A DNA stretch of 64,000 bases from Eledone cirrhosa (GCA_964016885.1 OZ024743.1:62434001-62498000), one strand, 5' to 3'; positions 24,194 through 64,000 are shown, counted from the first letter of the stretch. The notes: generated by a model from the sequence alone, not told the origin. Made by a program: numbers and translations.

Positions 24194-24319
24194 ATTGTGA
24201 ACCCGGAACATTTGGCTTACATTGTCAAGAGCAATGTGATTGTGCTTCTTATGGTTGTGACACAGTCACTGGAAAATGTAATTGCCCATCAGGGTACACT
24301 GGACCACGCTGTGAGACAG
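24194..24319 (+). CDS. Exon of MEGF-like protein, one EGF module
   Basis: taccag|AT TGT GAA ... GAG ACA G|gtatac; 126 bp, phase 1-1; CEPGTFGLHCQEQCDCASYGCDTVTGKCNCPSGYTGPRCET. Confidence 0.92.
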
Positions 24320-24326
24320 GTATACA

Positions 24327-24735: not shown

Positions 24736-24783
24736 ATCCATGTCTCTCTCTCTCTCACTCATTCTCTCTTTCTTCTCCTACAG

Positions 24784-24918
24784 CATGTTCTGGAAGACGC
24801 TATGGTCCAAATTGCCGCTACATTTGTGAGTGTGACAACTATGGAGTGTGTGACCCAATGTCAGGTCACTGCAATTGTCCAGATGGTTGGATTGGTGCTA
24901 AATGTGAACTCACTACAG
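24784..24918 (+). CDS. Exon of MEGF-like protein, last EGF module
   Basis: ctacag|CA TGT TCT ... ACT ACA G|gtatta; 135 bp, phase 1-1; CSGRRYGPNCRYICECDNYGVCDPMSGHCNCPDGWIGAKCELTT. Confidence 0.92.
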
Positions 24919-24934
24919 GTATTATTCATTGCCT

Positions 24935-25215
24935 TCTCTCACTCTCTCTATCCCCCTCTCCCCATCTCTCTCTCTCTATCCCCCTCTCCCCATCTCTCTC
25001 TCTCTCTCTCCCTCTCCCCATCTCTCTCTCTCTATCCCCCTCTCCCCATCTCTCTCTCTCTCTCTCCCTCTCCCCATCTCTCTCTCTCTCTCTCCTTTGT
25101 CTCTCTCCCTCTCCCCATCTCTCTCTCTCTCTCTCCTTTGTCTCTCTCTCCCTCTATCTCTTTCCCTTTCTCTATCCCCTCACTCTCTCCCCATCTCTCT
25201 TTCTCTCTCTATCCA
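24935..25215. repeat. (CT)n-rich low-complexity repeat
   Basis: Repeated CCCTCTCCCCATCTCTCTCTCTCT. Confidence 0.9.
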
Positions 25216-25243
25216 TAATACATACAGCAACCACTGTCTATGT

Positions 25244-25520
25244 GAAGGCATGTGGCTTAGTGGTTAAGGTGTTTGGCTCACAATCATTAGACAATGAGTT
25301 CAATTCCTAGTAGCATATTGTGTGAACAAAACACTTCATTTCACATTACTCCACTCCAATCAGCCAGACCAAAAAAATTGTGTTGTACCTGTAATTCAAA
25401 GGGTCAACCTTATCATGTGCTGCACCATGCTGAATCACCCTGAGAACTATGTTAACGATACACGTGTCTGTGAAGTACTCACACACTTGCACTTTAATTT
25501 TGCAAGTTGGTTGTTTCATT
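25244..25520 (+). mobile_element. Second tRNA-derived SINE family (CORE-like), diverged
   Basis: TGGCTTAGTGGTTAAGG A box, GAGTTCAATTCC B box, AAAACACTTCATTTCAC core-like segment; a related partial copy lies on the minus strand near 31125-31255. Confidence 0.6.
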
Positions 25521-33842: not shown

Positions 33843-34035
33843 AATAATTGTTTCTACTTTTGGCACAAGGCCAGCAAATACCCAGTACATTACTGGTACT
33901 TTATTTTATCGACCCCGTGAGGATGAAAGGCAAAGTTAACCTCGGCGGTATTTGAACTCAGACCGTAAAGGGACGTAACTCCATGCTATGAAGCATGGTG
34001 TCCGACTCTCTACAGATTCTGCCAATCCACCGCCC
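33843..34035 (-). mobile_element. tRNA-derived SINE copy
   Basis: Reverse complement of the 21383-21575 family, including the GGCGGTGGATTGGCAG 5' end. Confidence 0.8.
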
Positions 34036-34607
34036 TAATGTCTGTACGTAATGAGGGAGTGAGAGGGGAGAGAAAGAAAGGCAGAGGTGAAGTGACGAAG
34101 TGACTCTCTCCTCCTCCTCCTCCTCCTCCATCTCCCCATTCGTCACAGCGATAGAGGGGAGGAATGTTAGTGTGTTACAAAGAGAAAGAGTGAGAGTGAG
34201 AGAAACATACAGACTAAAAGAGAGGGATAGCTGGAGAGAGAGAGAGAGAGATAGCAACCACACGCGTACGTGTTTCCACTGTCGGACAGACAGACAGAAA
34301 TTGCTGGTTATATATTATAAGGAGATAATGACTTATTGTTAATTATGAAACAAATACAAAGCTGGTACTGTTACAGAAATAAATAAGATATTTCATTGGT
34401 AAGGGCAGACTTAATTTGCACTTTAGCTGCTTGCTGGTGCTACTGACTCTGTTTTGCTGCTCTTTCTGTAGCCGCTGATGGTGTTGCTGTTTGTTTGTCT
34501 TATGCCTCTATCTAAAAATAAGATTTGAAAAATTTTCGCTAACATAAAATTATATATAAATAAGGTGCTAAAATATCTGGAGTGATCATTTGACAATGAA
34601 ATACTGT

Positions 34608-34942
<335 letters not shown>

Positions 34943-34946
<4 letters not shown>

Positions 34947-35670
34947 GGAAAAAATGAAATTTCATAGTATGTATATACATACATACATGCACACATATAT
35001 ATATGTACATATGGGTTTGCCGAACATTTATTATAATGTTCGGTTTATTTGTAAACAAACAGCCCGAATTAAGCCGTACAGTGTTCGGCAACCATCGTTG
35101 CCTTTTTGTTCAACACTGACAAAGGAACGATGTACTAGTTTCTAGCTTATTAGCTGTCATCAGTACCGTATACCTTCCTGTCAGTCGATTGAACGTTTAA
35201 AGTATATACTTTCCTTGTGCGTATTAAGGGCTGAGCAGCCTAATTTGCATATCGAGTGAGTTAGTCGGCCGGGCGTACCGAAAACGATAAATGGAAAAAA
35301 TGAAATTTCATTTCTCACTCTTAGTACGGCTGATACTTAAATATAAGATGTATACGTACATGCATATATGTATACAGATGTACAGTAGTATGTATATACA
35401 TACATGCACACATATATATATATGGACGTATGGGTTTGCCGAAGATTTATTATAATGTTCGGTTTGTTTGTAAACAAACAGCCCGAATTAAGCCGTACAG
35501 TGTTCGGCAACCATTGTTGTCCTTTGGTATATACTTTCAAACGTTCAATCGACTGACAGGAAGGTATACGGTGCTGATGACATCTAATAAGCTAGAAACT
35601 AGTTCATCGTTCCTTTGTCAGTGTTGAACAAAAGGGCAACGATGGTTGCTGAACACTGTACGGCTTAATT
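34943..35670. mobile_element. Hammerhead-containing repeat family A (candidate retrozyme), fold-back copy
   Basis: Minus-oriented part 34943-35526 (period about 419 bp, hammerhead 35126-35170) joined to an inverted plus-oriented part 35527-35670 (hammerhead 35568-35610); homologous to the 60469-64000 array; flanked by (TA)n. Confidence 0.8.
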
Positions 35671-35758
35671 ATATACATATATATATATATATATACATAC
35701 ATATACATATATACTTAATTATATACATATATATATATACATACATATACATATATAC

Positions 35759-35843
<85 letters not shown>

Positions 35844-35906
35844 CTTAATTATATACATATATATATATATATACATACATATACATATATATACTTAATT
35901 ATATAC

Positions 35907-35988
<82 letters not shown>

Positions 35989-36111
35989 ACATACATATAC
36001 ATATATATATATATGCATACATATACATATATATACATATACATACATATACATATATATACATATATCAAAATGAAAATCCGAAGGCAAGGTTAAATTC
36101 CAATCATTTAA

Positions 36112-36185
36112 TCACGACACATGTTTCAATAAGAGATAGATCGATTGTGAAGCCATGATCGATTATCACTGATCTCATCAGGTGA
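36112..36185 (-). ncRNA. Minimal type I hammerhead ribozyme in an orphan pLTR-like fragment (about 36069-36435)
   Basis: Minus strand: TCAC CTGATGA [stem II] GAAA CATGTG TC GTGA; stem I TCAC/GTGA, palindromic ACATGT, GUC cleavage triplet. Confidence 0.75.
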
Positions 36186-36460
36186 AAATGAATTGTCTTC
36201 AAATTCTTGATATGAAGGAGAAAAAATAACGATGTTCTCTCACATAATTCATCCCCTTATATGGAGACACACCAGTCAGTCAAAGACAAGGTGTCTGCTA
36301 TTAGCTTTAGTTGAGGTCATAAAAGTTTCCAGACTTCTATCGCTGCAAAAGACGCTGGAGATCAAACAAATCTGTAGGGATACAGTCAGTCACAGTAGTT
36401 TACACAACCAATATTGCACCTTACTATATAACAACTATATATACATACATATATATATAT

Positions 36461-37531
36461 ATATTGTTATATTTGGGGAGGGTCATATTTGCGTAATATT
36501 GCCAGAATTAATAACAGAACACACTCACTGTTTGGTTGGTTTTCGCTTCTCGCTGTCTTTTATATATATATATCTGCGATCTAACTTACTCGGTCCTCAA
36601 TGTTGCCATTGACTGACCGGCGGTCAAAAATAATACAGATACAATATAGACAAACACATATATATATAGTTTACATAAATCTTTCGTTGCACATCTGCAA
36701 CATCGTCAGTGGTGTTATATTCATTGTTCCTCCTGTTGTGTTGTATGTCTACGCCATTTTTTTTGTTCAGTCTGTCTATATATTTATTTATTTATTTGCT
36801 TGTTTGTTTATCTTATTTTTTTTTTTTTTTTTTTTTTTTGTCTTCTTTGCGCATGCGTTTGCGTGTGTGTATAGTGTTATGTGTGATGTGTGACTAGTGT
36901 GTATAGTGTTGTGTCTGCTGGGTGACTAGTGTGTGTTTATGTGCTTGTGTATGTATTTATTTATCTTATTTTATTTAATTTAATTTACTTATTTATTTAT
37001 ACTTCTCTTAGGTCAGTGTTGTTTGTTTGGGTGTTGTTGTTGTTCCACTCATTCTTTCTGTTTAGCTTTGGTCTTCTAATTTCTATTTCACTGGCCTCTC
37101 TGATTTGCCTATCTGCTGGGTCATTCCTATGTTTAGATATTATTCTAATTTCTATGTTGTCTATGTTACCGTCATGATGTTGTCTAGCATGTTCGTATAG
37201 TACTGACCCGTTTTTTCGTCCTTTTAGTTCCCCCCAGTGTTGGTCTATCCTTTCACCTATGCTACGAGCTGTCTCACCTATGTATGTTGTTGTCGTGTTT
37301 CTGCAAGTACCCTCTGTACATCTTATGCTATAGACTACGTTTCTAGTTTTACAGTTTATCCGGGGGTTCACCTTACATATGATACATTTCCTATTGGTAC
37401 AGTGGGTTTTCTTAAAAGGGTAGGTTTTGCTGATCAGGGATTTTATGGTGGTTCCTGGCTTTTCTAACACCTTTATTTTTAAGTGGGTCTTTCTCAGGGC
37501 CTTTCTACACTGGTTAGCTAATTTCCCTCCA
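36461..37531 (-). repeat. Inverted duplication of the 3' 1071 bp of the PLE (inverted pLTR)
   Basis: Reverse complement of 39806-40876 (paired coordinates sum to 77337); only one substitution noticed (LEKP vs VEKP codon). Confidence 0.95.
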
Positions 37532-37541
37532 TGGCAGGAAA

Positions 37542-40340
37542 GTGAGAAATAGTGATAATAGTAATAATACTAGCGATAGACAGAACAACAACAACCACAA
37601 TAATAATAATAATAGAAACGTTAACCACAGACACAGCAACAGTGACCACAGTAGTAATAACGGTAACAATACGAACAACAACAACAACAATAACCACAGT
37701 GGTAATAATGGAAATAGTACATGTAGCAACATCAACAAAAACAAGAAACATAATAATAGTAACAACCACAATGGTAGAAATAGCAGTAACAACAACAATA
37801 ACGGTGAAGTAAACAACAATACATCTAGCAATCATAACAATAATAATATTAATGCTAAGGATAGAAACAACAACAACCACCATGATAACAATAATAGCAA
37901 CACACACAACTATGACGATAGAAATAACGACAACCCCTTAGAGAAACTATTTTTCAACCCAGCTGACAAAACATATAAGATGGGTAATATCTATCCTACG
38001 AGGTTACCCTTTAATAAAAGAGTTTGCATACCACAACAAATAGATGACGAGACGGAGGCACAGTTCACCATAGCTAGAAATAAGATTAGACAAGTAGTAG
38101 ACAGGTACACTATGAGACAGAGCAGACCAGAGGCCCAACAACTTGGGATAAAACCTGTAGAAGGCTTGGTTAGCCTCAAGCAGCGCACAAGGGATGGTGA
38201 GGTAGTGTGTCTACCCACAGATAAGTCTGGTAGGATGTCAATAGATAGCATGCCGAACTACATCGAGGCAATGCAACCCCACATCACCAACACGAGCGAA
38301 GTTGCACAACTAACACACGATGGGAGAGAAAAAATCCTCAACGCTCACATGATGATGTGGACTGACATCCTAAAGCCAAGCAGACGCACTGCCAACAACT
38401 TCCAGGCGTCTAACAATGGCATACCACCCTTGTATGGGCTCCGCAAAGACCACAAGACAGTCGACGACCCGACAATAGGACCACCAACAAGACCTGTATG
38501 CGGAGCTAATATAGCTAGCAACTACAGGATCTCCTACTTCCTCTCAATGGTTATACGCCCCATAATCAAGATGTCCCCAGATGTATGTGAAAGTACAGAG
38601 GACCTCCTCAGCAGAATCAGTGAGTGCAACAAAAACAGGAGCCTATCCAACTGCATAATAGGCAGCATGGATGTGGTGTCACTGTACCCATCCATTAACA
38701 TTGATTTTGCTGTGAAAAGATGTGTGGAGATGATCATTGAGAGTGAGGTGGAGTTCTGCGACGTCGACACAGACGAACTGGGCCTCCTACTTAGACTTAC
38801 CTACGACACTGACTACCTAGACAGCCATGACCTTAGATGTTTCTGCCCTAGTAGACCTATAAGAGGTAGACCCCCCACCATAACCTCAATGGCTAAAAAG
38901 ACTCCCATAGGAAGGTGGATTGGGTGGACCAAAGCTATACGGACCCCCCAAAACACTGATCAGGTAAGAAAAATGGTCGCACATGCAATAGGGGCTAGTA
39001 TCAAAACTACCCTAAAGGGCCACATATTTAAGTTCAATGAGAAAATCTACACCCAAAATGAGGGAGCAGCCATCGGCGTCAGCATAGCTGGCGATGTTGC
39101 CAACCTTTTCATGGTATGGTGGGAAAGGAGACTTAAAGATCTCCTTAATGAAAGCTCCATAGACCTCATCATGTACTCTCGTTATGTAGACGATATCAAT
39201 ATAGTTATAAGAACACCCCCACTAGAGAGCACTAACAAGTTTGATTTAGAACGTAGCACGATGGAAAGCATCCAGCAGATAGCTAATTCCATACACCAGA
39301 GTATAACTGTAACTATAGACTTCCCTTCCAAACACCCTAACAATAGACTACCTGTATTAGACACAGAACTCTGGATTAACACTATAGACGAGAGAGCCCA
39401 AATTCTCCACTCACACTATGCTAAACCCATGGCCTCCAAATACCTGATACTCAAAAACTCAGCAATGTCCAGTAGTGCTAAGTTTAATATTCTGATCGCA
39501 GATTTGGTACGAGTGATGAAGAATGTGTCCAGCATGTGCGACCCAACAGAAATGGAAGGACACATCCAACACTTCATCAACCGCATGCAGTTCTCTGGCT
39601 ACAACCAAAGAGACAGAGTCAGAGTATACGAAGGAGCCATGGAAAAGTATAAGACCCTCATAGAACTGGACATGAAAGGAATTTGCCCACTATACAGGAG
39701 CAAATCATGGAATAGCTTAGATAGGGCTAGACATAAGATAGGGAAGGCCACATCATGGTACGACAACCAGAGATATCAGAGTGTCATGTTTGTGGACGCC
39801 ACCCCTGGAGGGAAATTAGCTAACCAGTGTAGAAAGGCCCTGAGAAAGACCCACTTAAAAATAAAGGTGGTAGAAAAGCCAGGAACCACCATAAAATCCC
39901 TGATCAGCAAAACCTACCCTTTTAAGAAAACCCACTGTACCAATAGGAAATGTATCATATGTAAGGTGAACCCCCGGATAAACTGTAAAACTAGAAACGT
40001 AGTCTATAGCATAAGATGTACAGAGGGTACTTGCAGAAACACGACAACAACATACATAGGTGAGACAGCTCGTAGCATAGGTGAAAGGATAGACCAACAC
40101 TGGGGGGAACTAAAAGGACGAAAAAACGGGTCAGTACTATACGAACATGCTAGACAACATCATGACGGTAACATAGACAACATAGAAATTAGAATAATAT
40201 CTAAACATAGGAATGACCCAGCAGATAGGCAAATCAGAGAGGCCAGTGAAATAGAAATTAGAAGACCAAAGCTAAACAGAAAGAATGAGTGGAACAACAA
40301 CAACACCCAAACAAACAACACTGACCTAAGAGAAGTATAA
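37542..40340 (+). CDS. Penelope-like retroelement ORF: reverse transcriptase plus C-terminal GIY-YIG endonuclease (5'-truncated)
   Basis: PTDKSG, LYGLRKDHK, TRPV, SMDVVSLYPSI, GAAIG, SRYVDD, LPVLD; Cys-rich linker CTNRKCIIC...C; VVYSIRC...YIGETARSIGERIDQH; EASEI...LNRKNEW; Asn-rich N-terminal segment. Confidence 0.93.
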   Translation: MRNSDNSNNTSDRQNNNNHNNNNNRNVNHRHSNSDHSSNNGNNTNNNNNNNHSGNNGNSTCSNINKNKKHNNSNNHNGRNSSNNNNNGEVNNNTSSNHNNNNINAKDRNNNNHHDNNNSNTHNYDDRNNDNPLEKLFFNPADKTYKMGNIYPTRLPFNKRVCIPQQIDDETEAQFTIARNKIRQVVDRYTMRQSRPEAQQLGIKPVEGLVSLKQRTRDGEVVCLPTDKSGRMSIDSMPNYIEAMQPHITNTSEVAQLTHDGREKILNAHMMMWTDILKPSRRTANNFQASNNGIPPLYGLRKDHKTVDDPTIGPPTRPVCGANIASNYRISYFLSMVIRPIIKMSPDVCESTEDLLSRISECNKNRSLSNCIIGSMDVVSLYPSINIDFAVKRCVEMIIESEVEFCDVDTDELGLLLRLTYDTDYLDSHDLRCFCPSRPIRGRPPTITSMAKKTPIGRWIGWTKAIRTPQNTDQVRKMVAHAIGASIKTTLKGHIFKFNEKIYTQNEGAAIGVSIAGDVANLFMVWWERRLKDLLNESSIDLIMYSRYVDDINIVIRTPPLESTNKFDLERSTMESIQQIANSIHQSITVTIDFPSKHPNNRLPVLDTELWINTIDERAQILHSHYAKPMASKYLILKNSAMSSSAKFNILIADLVRVMKNVSSMCDPTEMEGHIQHFINRMQFSGYNQRDRVRVYEGAMEKYKTLIELDMKGICPLYRSKSWNSLDRARHKIGKATSWYDNQRYQSVMFVDATPGGKLANQCRKALRKTHLKIKVVEKPGTTIKSLISKTYPFKKTHCTNRKCIICKVNPRINCKTRNVVYSIRCTEGTCRNTTTTYIGETARSIGERIDQHWGELKGRKNGSVLYEHARQHHDGNIDNIEIRIISKHRNDPADRQIREASEIEIRRPKLNRKNEWNNNNTQTNNTDLREV

Positions 40341-40891
40341 ATAAATAAGTAAATTAAATTAAATAAAATAAGATAAATAAATACATACACAAGCACATAA
40401 ACACACACTAGTCACCCAGCAGACACAACACTATACACACTAGTCACACATCACACATAACACTATACACACACGCAAACGCATGCGCAAAGAAGACAAA
40501 AAAAAAAAAAAAAAAAAAAAATAAGATAAACAAACAAGCAAATAAATAAATAAATATATAGACAGACTGAACAAAAAAAATGGCGTAGACATACAACACA
40601 ACAGGAGGAACAATGAATATAACACCACTGACGATGTTGCAGATGTGCAACGAAAGATTTATGTAAACTATATATATATGTGTTTGTCTATATTGTATCT
40701 GTATTATTTTTGACCGCCGGTCAGTCAATGGCAACATTGAGGACCGAGTAAGTTAGATCGCAGATATATATATATAAAAGACAGCGAGAAGCGAAAACCA
40801 ACCAAACAGTGAGTGTGTTCTGTTATTAATTCTGGCAATATTACGCAAATATGACCCTCCCCAAATATAACAATATCTGTTTCGACACACG

Positions 40892-40944
<53 letters not shown>

Positions 40945-41711
40945 TTAGTTGTTATACATATACATATATATACATATGCATATATATACATATACATATA
41001 TATATGGTGGCTGCCAACTCGTTTTCGAGTACGGCCACTACTCTATATCCATGCAGGAGAACCCCTATCGATGCGCTGAACGAGTGTGGCTTTTTAGTCC
41101 AGCCAGCGACTTGAAAACTCTGGTACAAACACTACACTTGTGACAATTATTGACACATAGTGCTGGGCCCATGGTACCAAGTGATGACAAGTGCAGAGAG
41201 ATCTCCAGATATAAAGCAATGCCTGTGCCGTGAAGCTTTTATAGTGAGCAAAGGCACTGCACAAAGCCAGTCCCACTCTCTTAACCAAGATGATATTTAC
41301 CAAAAAGAAGAACAAGTCAACATCATTGGATACCATCAGGGTTGCAAGTGTTATATCAGAGTTTTCCTTCTCCTAGAATTCTGCCTTGACAAAGGCTAAG
41401 GGGTCATCTCTCCCGGTGATTTTGGATGGCCATTGACTCTTATGAGCTCCTTTGCCCTTTGACAGGTTTTGTTTTTAGTTCTGCAGGATGTCCAAAGTCA
41501 CCCTCCTCACCAAGAAACCTTGGTGGGGTTCCCAGTTTAGTCGCCAACGACCCGACCATGAGACAGGTTGTACTGGGATACATGTTACCTGTAGCACCAA
41601 CTGGTGACTTGACATATATACATATATATATACATACATATACATATATATACATATACATATATATATACATATATATATACATATATATACATATACA
41701 TATATATATAC

Positions 41712-41929: not shown

Positions 41930-41931
<2 letters not shown>

Positions 41932-44900
41932 AAATAAAATAAATAAGTCAAATGTTTAAAATTTGGCTTCGTTTATTACTGCTATATATATTTCGGTGAC
42001 AGCCATCTTTGGCTATGACCTCTTCAGGCAGTCCGAATTAGTCTGGTAGAGACGAGTACACACGTTGTTGAGGAGTATAACTTTGTTAATACTCTGATAT
42101 GCCCAGTTCCTGGTTGTGTTGTTGTTTCATTGAGGAACTGGAATCATGAATTTAAACAAACGAATTTCAGCGTCCGAGGACATATCCTCCTCTCATTGGT
42201 CAGTTGTGAGAATATTCCTCAGTCAAAAGTCTATAGAAATTCATTCTGAGGCAAGGCAATCTGTAGTGGTTTTTCCTTGTTATTGCTAAGTACATCTGAC
42301 CTCTACTCTTATGTTGGTGGTGTTGATGTTAGAATCAGCTCAAAAAATGATAAAATGGTAGAAGGAATAAGGTGGTGGAGGAACCAAATAAATAATCAAA
42401 TAAAATGTGTGTGTTATACCCAATCTCAATGTTATAAAAATTTGTAAGTTCACTCCTCCCATTGGTCAGTTTTGAGAGCATTCCTAAGTCAAAAGTCTAT
42501 AGGAATTCTTTCTGAGGTGAGGTTCCCTGTAGTATTTGCTTTTGATATTGTTAAGTACATCTGACCTCTACCCTTAATTTGGTAGTGTTGTTGGTGTTGT
42601 GGTCAGCCCATGTTTTGCTGTTGCTGACATTTATAAGTATCTGTGTGTGTTTCTTCATCCATCCTGCCACCATCTCTCGTGGTGGTGGTGGGAGGTGGGT
42701 CTGCCATGTTTATGAAGAAATAGAAGGCAATAAGATGAAGAAAACAGAAAATAAATAATGAATAGAAAATAAATGAAAAATTAATTAATGAAAAATGACA
42801 AATGACAAATGTAAAATGAAATGGAAATTGAAAAATGTAAAATGAGATATGAAAATGAAAAGTGGAAAATAGAAGTGAAGATTCAAATAAAGTAAAATGT
42901 GTGTGTTCTATAACCAATCTCAAGGTCAGAAAGATGTTGGATAAAGTAGTAGGAGGAACAAGATGGTAAAAGAATAAAACGAAATAAGATAATTAAATAA
43001 AAAGTGTGTGTTATAACCATTCTCAACTTAAATATAAGGCAATAAGGTGAAGAAAACAAAACAAATGAAAAATCAATGAAAACTCAATGAAAAATCAAGT
43101 AAAATAAAATGTGTGTGTGTTAGAAAGATATTGGCCAAATTAGAAAAGCTGTGTCAGAATCAATCTCTAGGCTATCATGGTGTCAGCTCAGCCGGGGTGG
43201 GTCCCTATGGCTTGAGGGGAGTTCCCAACCTATGGTGTTGTTACTGCCCATATAGCTTGAGGGAGGTCTGGCCGAGAGGTGTCTACATGTTCCGGAGAAG
43301 TCCCTATAGCTTGAGAGGTGTTCACATCTCAGTGGGTTGCTACTGTCTATATAGCTTGAGGAAGGTCCCGGCCCTGAGGTGTCTGCATGTCCCGAAGAAA
43401 TCGGTTCTGAGGTTTATCAGGCGGCTTCCACCTCTTAGCATCTCGAGGGTCTCGTTCAGACATAGTTTGCATATTCCGGATCCCCCTTTATCGGGTGGTA
43501 CCTTCCTGATTATGGACCAGGCCAGAGAGTACGGGGTCCTGTCCAGCTTCAGCTTCCAGATCAGGTCGGAGAGAGCCGTACTTTTCCTTTTGGCCACCTT
43601 GTTGAAGGAATGGCGATGGTTATACCAGCGGTCTTTAAAGCTCGTTGATGTGGCTCCTATGTAGAGGTGTTCGGAGTTGGGGGTTTTAACCCTACATCCG
43701 TATATTAGGTTCTTCTTAAGGCATTCATTATAGAGAGTGGTCGACCTCTCCGTGCCTAGTGTGGGGTTCCCGTTACGTGTTGCCTGGTGGTCTTCCCCCG
43801 GGTACGGTGGGGGGTCCCCGGGTCTGTTTGAGTTACTTGGGTGTGCACTGGATCGCCCCCTCCCTCCTTCCACATGGTTCTGATGGGTGCTTATATTGCC
43901 ATTTTCTGGTTGTGTGTGTTTTTTAAGCCTACTCCTGTTGATGCTAGCTATGTGTTGGGCCAGATTTCTTGTGGTGGAATACGAGAGCTTCACAGTGTGT
44001 CTGTTGAAGATCTTGTGGTATCTATGGTCTTTCGGGAAGCATTTATCAAGTGCTCCAAAGAATGATCGGGCCAACCTTTTCTTTAGGGCCGCTGAGTAGG
44101 GTGGGTTGTACCACGTGATTTTTCTGCGTCTACTCCTATATGGGTGGGTTGGGGGCGTCGTGAATTGTTGGAGAGTTGTTGGGTTGCTAGTGGTTGCCGT
44201 ATTGTTGTTTCCCCTTTGGGCGCTATGCGTTTTGCTATCTCCACGGCCTGAATCTGTGGGGTGGTCGTTGCCCGCGCTGGGAGATCCACTGTAGGGTGGT
44301 CCCCCGTTAACCCCCCCCCCCCCCCCTCACGTGTCCTGCGGTTGGGGTCGTCGGGCCCGGGGTGGTTATCATCACCCCTGAGACTGCTACTCATATTGGG
44401 TTTCATCTCATGGCTAAGGGTACTCGTCACCATCGCCCGTGTGGTGGTGTCGGGCTCATGGTGCTTATTTGTTTCTGTTCTGCCTGTATTGTTAGGGTTC
44501 GCCTCTTCCCGGACAACGCGGGTGTGTGTGTCCGTTGGGCCATCCCCATCCGGGCGTTTCGGACTATATGTTATATTTTGGCCATGTACCGCCTTATTTA
44601 GAGCTGTGTTGTAATATTCCGCGTTGTTATCAAATATTTCCTTATTAGCGGACAGGCTGGAGATCCTGTCCGAGACACTCTTCACCACGGCCTTGGTTAT
44701 GGATCTAGGGTGGTTTGACTTGGCGTTAACATACACAAGTTTCTCGTTGGGCTTGTGGTAGGGGTAGTATTGCTTGGTGTTCAGGTTTAGAGTGGTGTCT
44801 AGGAAGTTAACTACCTTTCTATTCGGGTCTAATTCGATACTGAGCCCCTGGTTCTTAAAGAAATGGCGAATACGCCTCTTCATTCCCTCCAACCTAGTGG

Positions 44901-45390
44901 TGTTGTGGTCATATACTGTGAAGAGAGCGTCGTCACGATATAATCCGCCGCCCAGGCAGTAGATTTCATCTTTTATCTGCTTCAGCAGGAAGAGCCCAAC
45001 CAGGTCCGTTACCTGTGCTGAGTCGCTGGAGCCCATGGTGATGTCAAAGTTATTTGGCCAATCACTCCTGGCCCAAAGGTCTCCTTCGAAATGGATTATG
45101 GTCTTTCTTGCGGCGTGGATGATGCTCACCTCCTCTCGGGTTAGGTCCGTTTTGGACATCGCTAAGAATAGGGCCTTATTGAGTACTATGGGTGAGATTG
45201 AGGAGTAGTAGCCTACAATATCCAGTTAGATAAAGCTGGTCTTACTTTTCTCATGTAGTATCTTAAACCATTCTATTACCTCTCCGATGCATGACCATTG
45301 CTGTAATCTAGTTTTTTTTCCCGAAGCTTGGGCAAAATCCTATCTAGTATTCTTTTACTGACGATCCCTAGGTCAGATCTGGAGGGGGCA
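41930..45390 (-). mobile_element. 5'-truncated Penelope-like element, probably Naiad-like, with frameshifts
   Basis: ORFs 44083-45159 (FDITMGSSDSAQVTDLVG, GGLYRDD, VNFLD, SNHP) and 43340-44074 (KIFNRHTVKLSYS, LIYGC...LYIGATS, CKLCLNE, CRH); long 3' pLTR ends at (TA)n. Confidence 0.88.
41978..42032 (-). ncRNA. Minimal type I hammerhead ribozyme in PLE pLTR
   Basis: Minus strand: ACTGC CTGAAGA GGTCATAGCC AAAGAT GGCTGTCACC GAAA TATATA TA GCAGT; stem I ACTGC/GCAGT, palindromic stem III. Confidence 0.85.
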
Positions 45391-46225
45391 CCGAAAACGA
45401 TAAACGGAAAAAATGAAACGAACTGTACCCCGGCCAATTAACTCACTCGATATGCAAATTAGGCTGCTCAGCCGTTAATATGCATAAGGAAAGTATATAC
45501 TTTCAGACGTTCAACCATCTGACAGGAAGGTATACGTTGCTGACGATAGGTAATAAGCTTGAAACTAGTACAGCGTTCCTTTGTCAGTGTTGAACAAATG
45601 AGCAACGATGGTTGCTAGACACTGTACGGCTTAATTCGGGATGTGTGTTTACAAATACACCGAGCATTATAATAAATGTTCGGTGAATCCATACGTACAT
45701 ATATATATATATGTGTGCATGTATTATATATATATATATACATACTACTGTACGTCTGTATACATATATGTATGTACGTATACATACTTATATTTAAGTA
45801 ACAGCCGTACTAATAGTGATAAATGAAATTTCGTTTCATTTTTTCCGTTTATCGTTTTCGGTACCCCGGCCGATTAACTCACTCGCTATGCAAATTAGGG
45901 TGCTCAGCCGTTAATATGCATAAGGAAAGTATATACTTTCAGACGTTCAACCATCTGACAGGAAGGTATACGTCGCTGACGATAGCTAATAAGCTTGAAA
46001 CTAGTACAGCGTTCCTTTGTCAGTGTTGAACAAATGAGCAACGATGGTTGCTAGACACTGTACGGCTTAATTCGGGATGTGTGTTTACAAATACACCGAG
46101 CATTATAATAAATGTTCGGTGAATCCATACGTACATATATATATGTGTGTGCATGTATTATATATATATATATACATACTACTGTACGTCTCTATACATA
46201 TATGTATGTACGTATACATACTTAT
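45390..46225 (+). mobile_element. Repeat family A (candidate retrozyme), about two tandem 436-bp units
   Basis: Hammerheads at 45534-45576 and 45970-46012 (consensus ACGTYG CTGACGA TAGSTAATAAGCTT GAAA CTAG TA CAGCGT); octamer ATGCAAAT at 45452 and 45888. Confidence 0.85.
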
Positions 46226-46242
46226 ATATATATATATATATA

Positions 46243-53332: not shown

Positions 53333-53374
53333 ATATACATATATATATATATATATATTATTCAAAATATATGC

Positions 53375-53434
53375 TTTATTATATATATTTCGGAGGCACT
53401 GTGCTGTTTTTTCAGTATGTCCTCATCAGATAAA
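53375..53434 (-). ncRNA. Minimal type I hammerhead ribozyme (intact copy in the inverted pLTR; sense copy at 57665-58409 is disrupted)
   Basis: Minus strand: TTTAT CTGATGA GGA..TCC GAAA TATATA TA ATAAA. Confidence 0.85.
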
Positions 53435-53975
53435 ATACATAAATTGATGTATGACATACCTCAACTGTGCTGATGGTTCAATTCCAGTCTTGGCTGTGAT
53501 TTATTACAACAAAACTCAATATTTATATACCACAAGTAAAAGTGTGACAAACTAAATATGATGGAGAGGGGTAAGTAGCGAGATATAAGTATTAGGAGTG
53601 GGTGGGTAGGAGAAAGTATAGAAGAAATAAATAAACACATAAGTATATAAATGTTAAATATTTAAATATGTAAATATCCGTGTTAGAGAAAAAGACAAAA
53701 GAGAGAGTGCTAAATAGAAGAGAAAAGGGAAAAAGATACAAAGATGAAGATAAAAAGAAGGGAGAGGGAGATAAAGCATATATTTTGATTATGTGAATGT
53801 ATCCATTTATTAATATTTTGAATAATATTAATAACTCCAGAAAACTTCACTGTTGAGTGCTTTTAATCTATTGTAAAACTATTCAATGAATAATCAATGA
53901 ACCTTGTTAACATTTGGTCATATTTAGTTCCCTGAAGGTAGAGCGCTTATTCTGCAATAGATTATCAATTAATAA

Positions 53976-56463
53976 ATGATGGAATTCTTTAGGTTTCTAA
54001 CATCTCTCAAAGATATACCTTTACCATCTAAAGAGGAATACATGAGAAATGTTATTGGACAAACAAACTCCTTCATAAGGAGACTGGGGTGGCGTGCTTT
54101 TCATTTTGAGAAAAAAGAAACAAATAGGAAAAACAACACAATTTCGAAAATATCTTTAAATCCAGGAAAAATCCTCCGTACAATAAACTCCTGGAAAATT
54201 TTGAAAATGAAATTTTTAATATATTAAGGAGGATAAAATTTAAGAAAAACCCATATAAAGGCCAGGAATACCTTAGAAGTCTGAGAGAAAAAATTATTGA
54301 TATAAAAAAAGTAAATAAAATATTAGTGAAATCAGACAAAACCAACAACTTATATGGGATAGAAAAAACAAAATATAAGGACTTAATTTTAAAGGAATTG
54401 AGAAAGAATTATAGAAAAGCCCCGGCTGAAGATCTAGTGGATATCAATAATGATGCTTTTGAAATAATCACCAATCTCGGAATTGAAAGGAGGACCGAAC
54501 CTTTCATACCAAGGCAACCGCGGATAAATTTTAAAGACCATAAAGGAAATTTCGAAGAGGACTTGCCTGTTAGACTCATCGCACCTTCGAAGTCAGACAT
54601 TGGAATAATTAGTAAAAACAAAATAGATAGGATTTAGCCAACATTAAAATTGAGGTCATGGTTTAACTTAAGGAAGGGCACTGGTGAAGTCATTGATTGG
54701 TTTAAGAACATTGAAAATAAGAAAAATCATAAATTCATTCAAATGGACATAGCGAGTTACTACTCCTCAATAACTCCTAACCTTTTGAAGAAGGTACTTT
54801 CATACGCATATAAACACACTGATCTATCTAGTGAGGAGATTAATATTATTTTAACGGCTAGGCGAACCTTGATTGACTTTAATAATAATTTTTGGATTCG
54901 TTCGGATAGGCAGAAAAATTTCGACATTACTGTGGGATAGTCCGATTCTGCGCAAGTTACCGATCTTCTGGGAATTTTCATCCTTAATATGATAAATAGA
55001 AAACTGCCGGAGATTACCGGTGGTTTATATAGAGATGACATATTATTTACTGTAGTTAAACATAGCAATAGTGAATTAAATAGAGTAAAGAAAGTAATTA
55101 TAGAATTCTTTAAAAATTACGACCTGAAATTAGAAGTAGAAAATAACAGTAAAATAGTTAACTTTTTAGACGTAGCGCTTAATTTAAACTCAGGCCTATA
55201 TTACCCCTTCCATAAACCCAATGAAAACCTTAATTATGTTAGTTTTTATTCTAATCATCCTAAATGTATTAAAAATGCAATAGTCAATAGTGTTCAACAA
55301 CGTATAACTAGATTATCTGCTAACAAATCCATTTTTAATAGTAAAGCAGGATATTATAATGAAGCGTTACATAAAGCAGGATATAAAAATAATATTGAAT
55401 ATGTAGAAAATAATAATAGTAATTATAAACAAAATATTCATAATAATAGGAATAATATAAATAAAACTGTAAAAATAAAAATATAAATATAAATAAAAAT
55501 AAAAATTTGGAGAATAAATCGGTGAAAACAAATTAGAACTAGATCTATTATTTGGTATGCCCCACCAGCATCTTTAGCTATTAAAACGCCTTTAGCACAT
55601 TTATTTTTCAAAGCCTTGGATAAATGTTTCCCTAGATCACATAAGTATTACTCTATCTTCAATAGACACACAGTTAAACTTTCGTACTCTACAACCATGA
55701 ATATGGCTCAAAATATTGCAAAAATTAATAGCAGAATTCTTAATTCAAACCAACATATAATTAGCGACAATAACAATAGTAATAATAATAATACAATAGT
55801 TATTGAGAATAACAATAACAATAATTTAAACACATATAGTAGAACACCTACAAATATTAACAATGATAATATGAACTGTTTAGATTATAGAAATAGCATG
55901 AAATTGAACTGTAACTGTAGAAGGAAATCCGAATGCCCTTTACAAAATAACTGCCTTGATAAGAATTTAGTATATAAATGTACCATTAAAACAAATAATT
56001 GTTTCTACTTTTGGCACAAGGCCAGCAATTATCCAGTGTATTACTAGTACTTTATTTTATCGACCCCGTAAGGATAAAAGGCAAAGTTAACCATTAAAAC
56101 AAATAATAATATTACTTATAACTATATAGGTGCAACTTCATCGAACTTTAAACTTCGATTTTCCAATCATAAACATTCTTTTTCTAATCCAGATAAAATA
56201 TTTTCTACTTCATTATCACAATTAATATGGTCTTTAAAAGAGAAAAATATGAAATACTCAATTTCTTGGGTTAAACTTAGAAACTCAGAATCCTATCGAA
56301 ACCATTCCATTTCACCAAACTGCAATCTTTGCAATTTTGAGACTCTATTAATATTGCTAATTATGGTAATTTAATTAATAAAAAAGTGAGTTATTTTCAA
56401 ATTGCCTCCATAAATCTACAAAAACATTTCAGGCATCATATAAATTTAGGAAAAAACATTGAC
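53976..56463 (+). pseudogene. Disrupted PLE RT + GIY-YIG ORF
   Basis: SLKDIPLPS..FIRRLGWRAFHF, KSDKTNNLY, KDHK, VRLIAPSKSDIG, MDIASYYSSI, FDITVG*SDSAQ, GGLYRDD, CNCRRKSECPL, LVYKC...YIGATS, CNLC; stops and frameshifts. Confidence 0.9.
56000..56089 (-). mobile_element. 5'-truncated SINE inserted in the PLE GIY-YIG region
   Basis: SINE core flanked by an 18-bp direct repeat ACCATTAAAACAAATAAT (55982-55999 and 56090-56107). Confidence 0.88.
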
Positions 56464-57713
56464 TGAGTGAGAAAAGATATTGATTTTTAAATTCTTGTTT
56501 TTATTAGTATTACGTAAAATGTTTTACCTCACCTTTACATGCATATCGGTTCTTTTATATAGTAAGTTAATCTCTTGATTGACTAAATACCTTTAGTTTG
56601 GTTTTTGAATCCTCATTTTATGTCTTGAATTTTCTAAATTTCAGATCTGAAATACCTTCAGGATTTCAAACCTTTTAGTTATTTTAAACGTTTAGATATG
56701 TTGTACGGAGCTTTTGTTTACATTTATCGTGTATAATTTTCGTTTTATCCTAATTGATTAATAATCTGTATTTAACTTGACCTATAGTATTGAATACAAT
56801 AAGATTTGGTTGAATCGAAATAATAATACTTTCAAGAGTAAATATAACTAATAATTAATCCTATATGTAATTGACAACTATTGATTTAAATAGTATTGTT
56901 TATCATATTTATAATTCTAAACGTTATATAAAATGCATATACAGATGCTGATATGCAATTAAGTTATGATAAATACTCTCATACTTATTTACTATATTTA
57001 TAAACATCATTGGTACTTAATAATGTTTATAACTAAATATTGAATATATTTATATATTTATTAATTTAACTATGCTCCTGATTATCTTTGAAAATATTTT
57101 ATATTGTTTAATTTTGATATAATATAATAGTATAATTTGCTCAAATATAACCAAATAATATAGATTAAAATTTCACGGTATTTAATTGATCGCTTCTACC
57201 TGACTTAATATTTGGAGAAAAAAAACGGTCACGCATCATGTCCCTTTCTTCTTTCTTTCTTTCTTTTTTATCTCTTTTCCTTATGCAGTTATATATTCTA
57301 TCATCTCTATCTCCCTCTCCCTTCTTTTTATCTTCATCTTTGTATCTTTTTTCCTTTTCTCTTCTATTTAGCACTCTCTCTCTCTCTCTTGTCTTTTTGT
57401 CTAACACGGATATTTACATATTTAAATATTTAACATTTATATATTTATGTGTTTATTTATTTATTTATTTATTTCTTCTATACTTTCTCCTACCCACCCA
57501 CTCCTAATACTTATATCTCGCTACTTACCCCTCTCCATCATATTTAGTTTGTCACACTTTTACTTGTGGTATATAAATATTGAGTTTTGTTGTAATAAAT
57601 CACTGCCAAGACTGGAATTGAACCATCAGCACAGTTGAGGTATGTCATACATCAATTTATGTATTTTATTTGATGAGGACATACTGAAAAAACAGCACAG
57701 TACCTCCGAAATA

Positions 57714-58398
57714 TCTATATATATAAAACTGAGGATGTCTGTGTGTGTGTGTGAGTATGAATCCCTAAAACTAGAGAACCACCCAACTGACTGTTTTTAA
57801 ACTTTCCACGTGTAATACTTATGTTTCAGGGAGTGTTCTGAGCAAAAGAAAAATTTCAAATTTTCAATGCCCTAGGGACCGCATTAGGCGATTTAGTGAT
57901 CTCTCTCTATAATTCTTAGTCTTTCTCTTTTTAGATAGATACATACATATAACGTCGCGCCCTTATAATATCTGTCTGTATGTCTGACTGTCTGCATTAC
58001 GTCACTTCCTACAATTCCCTCTCCATCCAGAACGCGACCTTATAATATATGTCTGCATGTCTGGCTGTCTGCTGCTCGTATTAAGTAAAAAAAACTTCAT
58101 TTTTTCAGCTTTTTAGGGCTTTTTTGAGGCGTTACGTCTAGCCGATTTTCCTGAAATTTCAAGGCATATTATGCACATAAAAAAAATCATTTTCTTGATC
58201 TCCTAGGGCCTGCATTAGGTGTAGACCTGCATTTTTCCTGCTTCATCGAGGAAAATCTAAAAGATTATCCAGTCATCAGAGTATTCGGTTTATTTTCTTT
58301 ACATATTGTCGGGGCATGCAGTTTTTCCACGATTAGGTCTGTTGGCGGCCCGCGTTCCAAAATACCTTATCCCGTGCAACGCCGAGTACCATTGCTAG
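57714..58398 (+). mobile_element. Non-autonomous Helitron (685 bp)
   Basis: A|TCTATATATATAAAAC ... CCCGTGCAACGCCGAG TACCATTG CTAG|T; no TSD; removing it restores GAAATATATATAATAAAGC as in the inverted pLTR copy. Confidence 0.88.
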
Positions 58399-58989
58399 TA
58401 TATAATAAAGCATATATTTTGATTATGTGAATGTATCCATTTATTAATATTTTGAATAATATTAATAACTCCAGAAAACTTCTTTGTTGAGCGCTTTTAA
58501 TCTATTGGAAAACTATATTCATTGAATAATCAATGAACCGTGTTTAACATTTGGTCATATATATTGTGAGTTGTGATGTTGCTATTCCATTCATGTTTTC
58601 TCACAATTAAGGACAAAATGAAAACACACACACATAGAACAAACAACTAACTAGTAACATATAAATAAACAAATAAATAAACAAATAAAAACACTCACAG
58701 ACACCCATATGTAACACATGCGCAAACTAAGCCCACAGCACACACCAAAACAAGATGACGTAGGACAGACAAAGGAGAGGCACAAAACAAAGAAAAGAAT
58801 CCCCAGTCGCTGAAGAGGTCCAACAAACCAACCGGAAATTTGTAAATTTTTAAATAAAAAATTTAATTGATAATAAATTGAAGTGAAAGCAACTGGTGCG
58901 TGTGTTTCTTATTGGCAACATGACCCTCCCAAAGCATAACAATATAGGTTTCAACACACGTTTTCAGATAAAGAATCTTGCTAAACAAA

Positions 58990-60425: not shown

Positions 60426-60468
60426 TATATATGTATATATATACATATATATATATGTATATATATAC

Positions 60469-61002
60469 ATGTAAGTATGTATGTATACGTACATACATAT
60501 ATGTATACAGACGTACAGTAGCATGCATATATATATATATATATATATACATACATATACATATATACATACAGGTACACATACATATATGCACACATCA
60601 GTTTAGCGGACGCTTATTATAACGCCGCTTTGTTCGTTTGTAAACAAACTGAACAGCCTGAATTTATGCCATACGGTGTTAAGGCAACCACGTCACCTTT
60701 TTTTTCAACACTGACACAGGAACGATGTACTAGTTTCAAGCTTGTTAGCTATCATCAGCACCGTTTACCCATCTGCCAGATAGTTGAACGTTCGAAAGTA
60801 TATACTTTCCTTATGAAAATTAACGGCTGAGCAGCCTAATTTGCATATTGAGTGAGTTAAATCGGTCAGGCATACCGAAAACGATAAGTTGAAAAAAATG
60901 AAAACGAAATTTCATTTCTCACTCTTAGTATGGCACTTACTTAAATGTAAGTATGTATGTATACGTACATACATATATGTATACAGACGTACAGTAGCAT
61001 GC

Positions 61003-61033
<31 letters not shown>

Positions 61034-63862
61034 CATATACATATATACATACAGGTACACATACATATATGCACACATCAGTTTAGCGGACGCTTATTAT
61101 AACGCCGCTTTGTTCGTTTGTAAACAAACTGAACAGCCTGAATTTATGCCATACGGTGTTAAGGCAACCACGTCACCTTTTTTTTCAACACTGACACAGG
61201 AACGATGTACTAGTTTCAAGCTTGTTAGCTATCATCAGCACCGTTTACCCATCTGCCAGATAGTTGAACGTTCGAAAGTATATACTTTCCTTATGAAAAT
61301 TAACGGCTGAGCAGCCTAATTTGCATATTGAGTGAGTTAAATCGGTCAGGCATACCGAAAACGATAAGTTGAAAAAAATGAAAACGAAATTTCATTTCTC
61401 ACTCTTAGTATGGCACTTACTTAAATGTAAGTATGTATGTATACGTACATACATATATGTATACAGACGTACAGTAGCATGCATATATATATATATATAT
61501 ATATACATACATATACATATATACATACAGGTACACATACATATATGCACACATCAGTTTAGCGGACGCTTATTATAACGCCGCTTTGTTCGTTTGTAAA
61601 CAAACTGAACAGCCTGAATTTATGCCATACGGTGTTAAGGCAACCACGTCACCTTTTTTTTCAACACTGACACAGGAACGATGTACTAGTTTCAAGCTTG
61701 TTAGCTATCATCAGCACCGTTTACCCATCTGCCAGATAGTTGAACGTTCGAAAGTATATACTTTCCTTATGAAAATTAACGGCTGAGCAGCCTAATTTGC
61801 ATATTGAGTGAGTTAAATCGGTCAGGCATACCGAAAACGATAAGTTGAAAAAAATGAAAACGAAATTTCATTTCTCACTCTTAGTATGGCACTTACTTAA
61901 ATGTAAGTATGTATGTATACGTACATACATATATGTATACAGACGTACAGTAGCATGCATATATATATATATATATATATACATACATATACATATATAC
62001 ATACAGGTACACATACATATATGCACACATCAGTTTAGCGGACGCTTATTATAACGCCGCTTTGTTCGTTTGTAAACAAACTGAACAGCCTGAATTTATG
62101 CCATACGGTGTTAAGGCAACCACGTCACCTTTTTTTTCAACACTGACACAGGAACGATGTACTAGTTTCAAGCTTGTTAGCTATCATCAGCACCGTTTAC
62201 CCATCTGCCAGATAGTTGAACGTTCGAAAGTATATACTTTCCTTATGAAAATTAACGGCTGAGCAGCCTAATTTGCATATTGAGTGAGTTTAATCGGTCA
62301 GGCATACCGAAAACGATAAGTTGAAAAAAATGAAAACGAAATTTCATTTCTCACTCTTAGTATGGCACTTACTTAAATGTAAGTATGTATGTATACGTAC
62401 ATACATATATGTATACAGACGTACAGTAGCATGCATATATATATATATATATATATACATACATATACATATATACATACAGGTACACATACATATATGC
62501 ACACATCAGTTTAGCGGACGCTTATTATAACGCCGCTTTGTTCGTTTGTAAACAAACTGAACAGCCTGAATTTATGCCATACGGTGTTAAGGCAACCACG
62601 TCACCTTTTTTTTTCAACACTGACACAGGAACGATGTACTAGTTTCAAGCTTGTTAGCTATCATCAGCACCGTTTACCCATCTGCCAGATAGTTGAACGT
62701 TCGAAAGTATATACTTTCCTTATGAAAATTAACGGCTGAGCAGCCTAATTTGCATATTGAGTGAGTTAAATCGGTCAGGCATACCGAAAACGATAAGTTG
62801 AAAAAAATGAAAACGAAATTTCATTTCTCACTCTTAGTATGGCACTTACTTAAATGTAAGTATGTATGTATACGTACATACATATATGTATACAGACGTA
62901 CAGTAGCATGCATATATATATATATATATATATACATACATATACATATATACATACAGGTACACATACATATATGCACACATCAGTTTAGCGGACGCTT
63001 ATTATAACGCCGCTTTGTTCGTTTGTAAACAAACTGAACAGCCTGAATTTATGCCATACGGTGTTAAGGCAACCACGTCACCTTTTTTTTCAACACTGAC
63101 ACAGGAACGATGTACTAGTTTCAAGCTTGTTAGCTATCATCAGCACCGTTTACCCATCTGCCAGATAGTTGAACGTTCGAAAGTATATACTTTCCTTATG
63201 AAAATTAACGGCTGAGCAGCCTAATTTGCATATTGAGTGAGTTAAATCGGTCAGGCATACCGAAAACGATAAGTTGAAAAAAATGAAAACGAAATTTCAT
63301 TTCTCACTCTTAGTATGGCACTTACTTAAATGTAAGTATGTATGTATACGTACATACATATATGTATACAGACGTACAGTAGCATGCATATATATATATA
63401 TATATATATATACATACATATACATATATACATACAGGTACACATACATATATGCACACATCAGTTTAGCGGACGCTTATTATAACGCCGCTTTGTTCGT
63501 TTGTAAACAAACTGAACAGCCTGAATTTATGCCATACGGTGTTAAGGCAACCACGTCACCTTTTTTTTCAACACTGACACAGGAACGATGTACTAGTTTC
63601 AAGCTTGTTAGCTATCATCAGCACCGTTTACCCATCTGCCAGATAGTTGAACGTTCGAAAGTATATACTTTCCTTATGAAAATTAACGGCTGAGCAGCCT
63701 AATTTGCATATTGAGTGAGTTAAATCGGTCAGGCATACCGAAAACGATAAGTTGAAAAAAATGAAAACGAAATTTCATTTCTCACTCTTAGTATGGCACT
63801 TACTTAAATGTAAGTATGTATGTATACGTACATACATATATGTATACAGACGTACAGTAGCA

Positions 63863-63902
<40 letters not shown>

Positions 63903-64000
63903 CATATACATATATACATACAGGTACACATACATATATGCACACATCAGTTTAGCGGACGCTTATTATAACGCCGCTTTGTTCGTTTGTAAACAAACTG
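60469..64000 (-). mobile_element. Tandem array of repeat family A (476-480-bp units, more than 7 copies, runs off the window), one minimal hammerhead per unit (candidate non-LTR retrozyme)
   Basis: Minus strand AACGGTG CTGATGA T AGCT AACA AGCT T GAAA CTAG TA CATCGTT at 60721, 61201, 61677, 62153, 62630, 63106, 63584; units are nearly identical apart from microsatellite and poly-T length. Confidence 0.92.

Follow-up and report, generated by a model that had tools for sequence, protein, structure and literature searches.

The DNA between positions 34941 and 35670 of a 64,000-nt stretch of the Eledone cirrhosa genome (GCA_964016885.1 OZ024743.1:62434001-62498000; the whole stretch is referred to below as the window) raises the question of how a non-coding repeat bearing a ribozyme-type motif came to be inserted as two opposed copies whose 3' ends point away from each other. 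It is probable, at about 0.8 by our estimate, that the segment represents one insertion of a 434-nt non-coding hammerhead-type tandem repeat (hereafter family A), composed of two head-to-head, 5'-truncated arms with 3' ends directed outward into TA-rich DNA, and that it was likely written by a Penelope-like element (PLE), whose reverse transcriptase/endonuclease would have primed at either end of a break.

Structure of the insertion

Positions within family A are given as q coordinates, for which the unit at 45423-45858 of the window served as the query (q1-436). The insertion and its surroundings comprise the following features.

34615..34940, no strand: (TA)n microsatellite of the left flank, presumed target, read directly in the sequence
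34941..35280, minus strand: unit copy 1, with the tail-bearing 3' end (q430 site) at 34941-34943; about 73 nt shorter than copy 2
35110..35190, minus strand: left-arm hammerhead-type motif, core 35134-35163; cleavage predicted from the motif between 35133 and 35132
35281..35526, minus strand: copy 2, 5'-truncated at about q173, without a hammerhead motif
35526..35527, no strand: head-to-head junction where the 5' ends of the arms meet, gap/overlap of 0 nt
35527..35670, plus strand: right arm, q71-214, 96% identical to the reverse complement of 35067-35209
35547..35627, plus strand: right-arm hammerhead-type motif, core 35574-35603; cleavage predicted between 35604 and 35605
35671..36066, no strand: TA-rich minisatellite with repeated CTTAATT, aligning weakly (76%) to q223-371

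The left arm (34941-35526) holds 1.6 tandem family A units on the minus strand, as seen from a direct repeat of 120 nt with 93% identity (34990-35109 and 35409-35528) and from an exact 25-mer that occurs at 34941 and again at 35287. The sequence-only reading had placed a flip of strand near 35526. An inverted-repeat search confirmed it, pairing 35067-35201 with 35536-35670 (135 nt, 96% complementary), and blastn extended the match to 144 nt at 95.8% (35527-35670 against 35209-35067). The unit positions at the junction are q173 for the left arm and q71 for the right. The plus-strand partial copy was also found to have its own predicted hammerhead-type core (35574-35603), in agreement with that reading.

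As to the further claim, that both 3' ends face outward into (TA)n, each 3' end does face TA-rich DNA. The left 3' end (34941-34943) adjoins about 330 nt of (TA)n. On the right, clear similarity to family A stops at 35670 and the arm runs into the CTTAATT minisatellite, so its true 3' end is unreadable and the tail end is the only readable outer end of this copy. The minisatellite is either a degenerate remainder of the right arm or target (TA)n itself, and it appears to have been amplified following a deletion in the right arm. Its units are 43-50 nt long, and each begins with CTTAATT, the final letters of the right arm. Elsewhere in the window, a 331-aa open frame at 24315-25310 has a weak laminin-EGF match (E = 0.006) and may be an exon of a host gene.

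The family A unit and its hammerhead-type motif

The family A unit is a non-coding tandem repeat of 434 nt with a GC content of 0.348, and the longest stop-free stretch in a trimer of it is 67 aa. It has no ORF and so encodes neither the reverse transcriptase nor the GIY-YIG endonuclease of an autonomous PLE. A tblastn search with PLE ORFs at family A loci gave matches in the flanking DNA alone. Family A can therefore be at most a non-autonomous dependant. Individual arms hold from about 1 to about 10 units, the longest comprising about 9.7 complete units. These properties correspond to a short, tandem, low-GC, non-coding unit (about 150-450 bp) with one type-I hammerhead motif.

The hammerhead core consists of CUGANGA, GAAA and a U-H cleavage triplet. 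In both arms of the insertion the core reads CTGATGA, 14 nt, GAAACTAGT, so that the core nucleotides of a type I hammerhead are present in the right order; helix II of the right arm is weakened by CATCT in place of CAGCT. The window contains 11 instances of the pattern CTGA[C/T]GA-14 nt-GAAACTAGT[A/T], where 100 shuffles gave an expectation of 0.00. Across the family A loci, a single identical 45-mer accounts for 40 of the 88 motif hits, and no part of the family is better kept than the core. As a type-I hammerhead, the motif would have a helix I of 6 + 5 + 5 pairs with internal loops, a helix II of 4 bp with a mismatched pair at its base, and a helix III reduced to a single A-U pair closed by a palindromic CUAG loop.

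In 38 distinct copies, 97.1% of cells are paired by the structure so drawn; sliding it along the sequence gives 34-50%, a comparison in which the structure was derived from the same sequences. Covariation in these 38 copies is confined to one pair (UG/GU/AU). A minimum free energy fold recovers helices I and II, with a z-score of only -0.82. No hit to the Rfam hammerhead models was obtained at the gathering threshold or at E <= 10 for the window, for 34000-41500 or for a 161-nt slice. The hammerhead motifs of PLEs and of the amphibian type are termed 'minimal' or 'atypical' in the literature (PMC7229834, PMC7761336). The family A feature is a hammerhead-type motif and a putative ribozyme. At one locus (L035) the array starts at the predicted cleavage site (q149), and this start was considered as a cleaved 5' end; because a diverged q134-162 piece lies before the array, it is not a clean one.

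Genomic census of family A insertions

The 3.0-Gb genome contains at least 1731 candidate family A places, of which the best-scoring 40 were analysed, a choice biased to full-length young units; in these, full-unit matches are 91-97% identical. One of the 40 is the window itself and two lie in one array (a segmental duplicate), which leaves 38 independent genomic loci and, with three loci of the window, 41 in all. The 39 loci other than the window were taken with 2.5-kb flanks, and their strand patterns were mapped by a script, with the following outcome.

-+ (head-to-head): 21 loci
composite containing -+: 5 loci
one-armed: 14 loci (13 after 60466-64000 was re-scored as two-armed)
+-: 1 locus

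Thus 27 of the 41 independent loci (38 genomic and 3 in the window) are two-armed and head-to-head, and 13 are one-armed. Two family A arms of the window other than those at 34941-35670 enter the comparison.

45423..46230, plus strand: right arm of 1.85 units, with a short-site 3' end (q371) in (TA)n
60466..64000, minus strand: left arm of sub-family B (unit of 477 nt), ending 3' at the short site; continues beyond the window

The second was at first scored as one-armed because the window ends inside it. In the next 9 kb, at the window-equivalent position 65121/65123, it flips into a plus-strand arm. The minus arm measures 4656 nt and the plus arm 4611 nt, about 9.7 units each (L080 1-6733), and the units are 99.3-100% alike; this insertion is very young. 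It has one short and one tailed end, at unit positions 58 nt apart. A poly-A filler at its junction was considered and set aside, the A/T runs of both arms accounting for the sequence there. The two arms are nearly equal in length, but equal arm length is not a general rule, being absent among 20 older insertions. A variant, 6G>A, is present in 4 of 19 full units of sub-family B with no simple period.

The orientation of adjoining arms is strongly one-sided. There are 27 head-to-head junction rows (25 independent) against two tail-to-tail rows, and in both of the latter (TA)n separates the members of the pair, which are therefore neighbouring insertions. Tail-to-tail pairs without a (TA)n spacer number 0 among the 41 loci, against 25 independent head-to-head pairs. 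As a control, an unrelated 674-nt repeat was treated likewise. None of its 40 scored loci (of at least 4382 candidates) has an opposite-strand piece, whereas in a match list of this type at least 9 of 40 family A loci have one.

Outer 3' ends and flanks

The outer 3' ends of family A lie at two fixed unit positions separated by 59 nt: one arm stops at about q430, its partner at about q371. The q430 end reads ...ccgtttat and is followed directly by TA repeats. The short end is placed at about q374 by BLAST, and its true position is q371 (...acttatat). Paired q430/q371 ends were found in 20 of the 27 two-armed insertions. Heterotypic ends characterise 14 of the 21 simple and 5 of the 5 composite insertions, so that 19 heterotypic insertions stand against one homotypic (binomial p = 2e-5). 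The sole homotypic insertion is of the 430/430 kind (L008); its arms are 86% and 96% identical to the unit and are therefore of different age. A 374/374 pairing was not found among the two-armed insertions of the census. In six two-armed insertions (L025, L028, L031, L036 and both window copies) one end or more is non-canonical or unreadable.

The 59-nt tail that distinguishes the two ends holds an 8-bp hairpin, AAATGAAA / TTTCATTT, as read from the sequence. TA-rich DNA flanks 43 of 61 outer 3' ends but only 1 of 21 outer 5' ends, and poly-A was found at none of the 61 outer 3' ends. Family A displays both the one-sided tail and the (TA)n bias of PLE-type insertion. The sequence-only reading had held that its inference would be refuted if most copies had poly-A or simple tails with TSDs typical of LINE mobilisation and the inversion were unique to this copy; the census gave the opposite on both counts, with 27 of 41 loci two-armed and 0 of 61 ends with poly-A.

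Inner junctions

In contrast to the outer ends, which are fixed, the coordinates of the inner junction differ in every locus. The overlap or gap between the arms lies between -4 and +3 nt at 19 of 28 junctions. The arms within one insertion have a median identity of 0.968, compared with 0.951 between loci (Mann-Whitney p = 0.008, n = 10 insertions).

Among the arm 5' ends there is one hot spot, q405-q15, which holds 15 of 56 arms against 5.8 expected (p = 4e-4, the interval having been picked post hoc). By arm type, 9 of 24 tailed and 4 of 24 short arms begin there, and because of this clustering many tailed arms are about 1.0 or 2.0 units long. The q405-q15 region (e.g. 45827-45437 of the tandem in the window) contains a GC-rich palindrome, cggtaccccggcc. 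A fixed RNA 5' end or a structural block fits the hot spot as well as a stall after a full turn on a circular template. Such a self-stall predicts short arms ending near q371, and these were seen, by eye, in 3 of 24 cases, which is about chance. Since q405-q15 is the sole hot spot, a circle is not required.

Penelope-like elements of the window and their joins with family A

Three PLEs lie in the window, one of them fused to a piece of family A.

36461..37534, minus strand: PLE1, inverted 5'-truncated arm, without a tail at its end
37535..40897, plus strand: PLE1, main copy, with a tail of about 20 nt at 40877-40897
41930..45387, minus strand: PLE2, 5'-truncated; ORFs at 43340-45225, GIY-YIG domain, hammerhead-like motif at 41984-42027
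45388..45422, minus strand: 34-nt piece of family A (q408-436 and a few nt) to which the truncated PLE2 is fused at its 5' end, both in one orientation
53360..53776, minus strand: PLE3, inverted 5'-truncated arm of about 415 nt; hammerhead-like motif at 53381-53429
53771..58560, plus strand: PLE3, main copy, split by the unrelated 674-nt repeat at 57728-58401

The likeness of the family A insertion to the PLEs at 36461-40896 and 53357-58560, noticed in the sequence-only reading, is borne out by their inverted arms of 1074 nt and about 415 nt. In PLE1 these arms (36461-37534 and 39803-40876) are perfect over 1074 nt. PLE1 has a 940-aa open frame with a reverse transcriptase domain (weak Pfam hit), a CX4CxxC motif and a GIY-YIG-like C-terminus. 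The N-terminal quarter of this frame is a long asparagine-rich tract, and N-rich inserts are known in rotifer Penelope ORFs (PMC3846280). The best 40 genomic matches to the PLE1 3' end are all 100% identical, and with its perfect arms and open frame PLE1 looks recently active; PLE2 copies are 92-96% alike, which is near the 91-97% of the full-unit family A matches, PLE1 being the younger.

A census of 20 genomic PLE1 copies gave 14 two-armed copies, with ends at r3361 on one arm and about r3342 on the other, three one-armed copies and three complex ones, one of which is tailed on both arms. The PLE1 tail is 19-20 nt long and is present on one arm only in 14 of the 20 copies. One tailed arm is given in advance, because the query contains the tail; the result is that the partner arm is tailless. 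In PLE3, once the 674-nt insertion is set aside, the right end overshoots the left one by about 130 nt.

Several details of these elements may be recorded. PLE2 and PLE3 have minimal hammerhead-like motifs (CTGANGAGG...CCGAAATATATAT) near their 3' ends, at 41984-42027 (minus), 53381-53429 (minus) and in the 57680 region (plus); the PLE3 main copy reads TTGATGAGG, compared with CTGATGAGG in its inverted arm. The 674-nt repeat has fixed ends and at least 4382 candidate copies, and a related form shares just its first 348 and last 47 nt. One copy lies inside TATATA of the PLE3 3' region and another, reversed, runs from 46236, beside the family A arm that ends at 46230.

A blastn-short comparison of family A with PLE1, PLE2 and PLE3 revealed no similarity beyond the abutting 29 nt and low-complexity TA, and a comparison with the PLE2 3' end and 20 PLE2 upstream flanks gave only low-complexity TA. 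A PLE whose terminal repeat or 3' end resembles family A was thus not found among the three elements compared, and none of them emerges as its helper.

Physical joins between the two kinds of sequence do exist. The family A piece at 45388 runs through the q430 site unbroken and then flips into the plus-strand family A arm. It was considered as a terminal repeat of PLE2 and rejected, 20 of 20 other PLE2 copies continuing upstream with PLE2 sequence at the point fused here. At a second locus (L022, 3316-3460), a family A arm adjoins, by its 5' end, the 3' end of PLE3-like sequence; the join falls at a non-canonical point within the tail of the latter, and a head-to-head PLE arm lies beyond it. 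At a third (L012, 3240-3480), 2 nt separate a family A 5' end from a fragment on the opposite strand that codes for PLE endonuclease, with TA tracts bounding both sides. Judged from their sequence, these three joins may be template switches within single events. They are leads, not proof, because there are only three loci, PLE fragments are common nearby (coding fragments lie within 2.5 kb of family A at 16 of 38 loci) and the PLE families differ. Some of the adjacency of PLE and family A could be nested insertion into shared (TA)n.

Origin of the two-armed insertions

In the mechanism proposed here, the GIY-YIG endonuclease of a PLE would cut both strands in (TA)n, and each 3'-OH would prime cDNA synthesis on family A RNA. 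Priming by one of them at the 3'-terminal site would keep the 59-nt hairpin-bearing tail; the second would prime 59 nt upstream, at a UA-rich site. The two cDNAs would halt at variable points and would be joined via 0-4 nt of microhomology. The hammerhead would process family A transcripts. As arms longer than one unit cross intact ribozyme sites, the template would have been an uncleaved multimer or a religated circle. It is noteworthy that PLE1, presumably copied from linear RNA, shows the same unequal ends. The suggestion of the sequence-only reading that a PLE reverse transcriptase acted in trans is thus strengthened by the two-armed loci, the one-sided tail and the parallel with PLE1; it gains from the inversion being recurrent and from the lack of any copy with a LINE-like tail, and it is drawn from insertion structure.

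A more specific proposal is put forward tentatively, its odds being in our judgement somewhat worse than even. Each two-armed insertion could be a single PLE event, with one ribozyme RNA (a linear multimer or a circle) bridging both break ends and copied from two fixed starts 59 nt apart, and, as suggested by the three chimeric loci, the enzyme could change from PLE mRNA to retrozyme RNA, or back, within one run. If this is true, retrozyme insertions would supply, in their thousands, natural records of how PLEs integrate, a mechanism still undefined.

Other origins of the inverted arms were weighed against PLE-mediated insertion. Twin priming by a LINE reverse transcriptase, as in 5'-inverted L1 or Alu copies, would be expected to yield an inverted 5' segment and junction microhomology too. 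It is very unlikely here, as none of 61 3' ends has poly-A, the family A arms overlap in sequence and are not consecutive parts of one template, and the outer ends, like those of PLE1, are both fixed, with a tail on one side. No more plausible is an origin at the level of DNA, whether through a fold-back or template-switch replication error, through recombination in palindrome-prone (TA)n, or as a DNA transposon with inverted ends. It is true that (TA)n is self-complementary and unstable, and that the right flank of the 34941-35670 copy underwent minisatellite expansion; but such processes do not match the 25 independent head-to-head against 0 tail-to-tail spacer-free pairs, nor inner junctions that vary per locus while the outer ends stay fixed, and a DNA transposon would have one constant internal structure.

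The family A arms might instead owe nothing to mobilisation in trans and be solo pseudo-LTRs that 5' truncation in cis left behind from an autonomous PLE with family A as its terminal repeat, given that most PLE insertions are 5'-truncated and leave terminal repeats (preprint 10.64898/2026.07.22.740005) and that PLE coding fragments occur within 2.5 kb of 16 of 38 loci. This too is improbable, if somewhat less so than the foregoing: an arm can hold about 9.7 complete non-coding units in tandem, the longest open stretch being 67 aa, similarity to family A is absent from PLE1, PLE2 and PLE3 and from the DNA upstream of 20 PLE2 copies, and an ORF lies between family A arms in none of the sampled loci. 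The least credible reading makes the flip an artefact of assembling a repeat-rich region. PLE-type tandem and inverted structures are known to trouble assemblies (PMC8557442), and the junction is spanned by none of the short repeat contigs from four sequencing runs, a result that is uninformative. The same architecture and end points recur at 27 loci on many contigs, and the arms of the 34941-35670 copy have diverged by 4%, which is not expected from a chimeric read.

Comparison with known systems

In L1 twin priming, both ends of the break prime cDNA, and the inverted 5' part is joined to the remainder by microhomology; the two parts are consecutive pieces of one poly-A RNA. The family A arms, in contrast, overlap, stop at two fixed sites and are without poly-A.

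The unit itself, non-coding, low in GC (35%), tandem, a few hundred nt long and with one type-I hammerhead motif, resembles the metazoan non-LTR retrozymes (Cervera and de la Pena 2020, PMC7229834). Two traits of the structure drawn for family A, the single-pair helix III with a palindromic tetraloop and the U-U (or C-A) mismatch with which helix II begins at its base, are known from amphibian (axolotl) retrozyme motifs that cleave as dimers (PMC7229834). Expression, circles and self-cleavage have been demonstrated for published retrozymes, whereas the analysis of family A covers DNA sequence.

The insertions resemble those of endonuclease-bearing PLEs, the hallmarks of which are a (TA)n bias, a 5'-truncated copy in inverted position and a tail of 30-40 bp confined to one end (PMC8557442, PMC3846280, PMC8969392). 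With these elements (Craig et al. 2021, PMC8557442; Arkhipova et al. 2013, PMC3846280) family A has in common partial tandems, a 5'-truncated copy that adjoins the 5' end in inverted orientation, the one-sided tail, the (TA)n bias, and small palindromes or microhomology where the inverted copy is joined; such insertion features are displayed directly by PLE1 and PLE3 in the window. It differs from them in encoding no reverse transcriptase or endonuclease and in its tail of 59 nt, compared with 19-20 nt in PLE1 and 30-40 nt in the published elements (PMC8557442, PMC3846280). One genome presents head-to-head arms, a one-sided tail and a (TA)n target that are common to a non-coding ribozyme repeat and to coding PLEs.

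Movement of non-coding or foreign cargo by PLE enzymes, as in our reading of family A, has precedents in an NRPS gene copy of Adineta vaga (PMC3846280) and in non-autonomous Chlamys elements, MRC1 among them (PMC8557442). Those cases give pseudo-LTRs and head-to-tail multicopy insertions, and their cargo shares terminal sequence with a known autonomous family, whereas family A matches none of PLE1-PLE3.

PLEs have been proposed as the likely mobilisers of animal retrozymes (PMC7761336), and PLE mobilisation has been argued from co-occurrence and terminal-repeat phylogeny (Li, Clavereau and Pollet 2026, 10.64898/2026.07.22.740005). Taken together, the retrozyme papers derive the link from co-occurrence, shared ribozyme type and terminal-repeat phylogeny, and leave the mechanism to be elucidated (PMC7229834, PMC7761336, 10.64898/2026.07.22.740005). 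A description of head-to-head arms, paired fixed 3' ends or a one-sided tail was not found in the searched passages of the same three sources, and literature searches brought up no paper on two-armed retrozyme insertions. For the re-entry of retrozymes into DNA, the architecture of the insertions provides independent evidence of a mechanistic type. An in vitro system for PLE two-ended priming is described as lacking (PMC8557442), and short, abundant retrozyme copies offer many junctions from which such priming may be worked out. By its sequence features, family A is an animal non-LTR retrozyme, a known kind of element, with a clear PLE-type insertion footprint. The idea of PLE mobilisation was already in print in 2020 and 2026; what is added to it here is the evidence from insertion structure and the chimeras.
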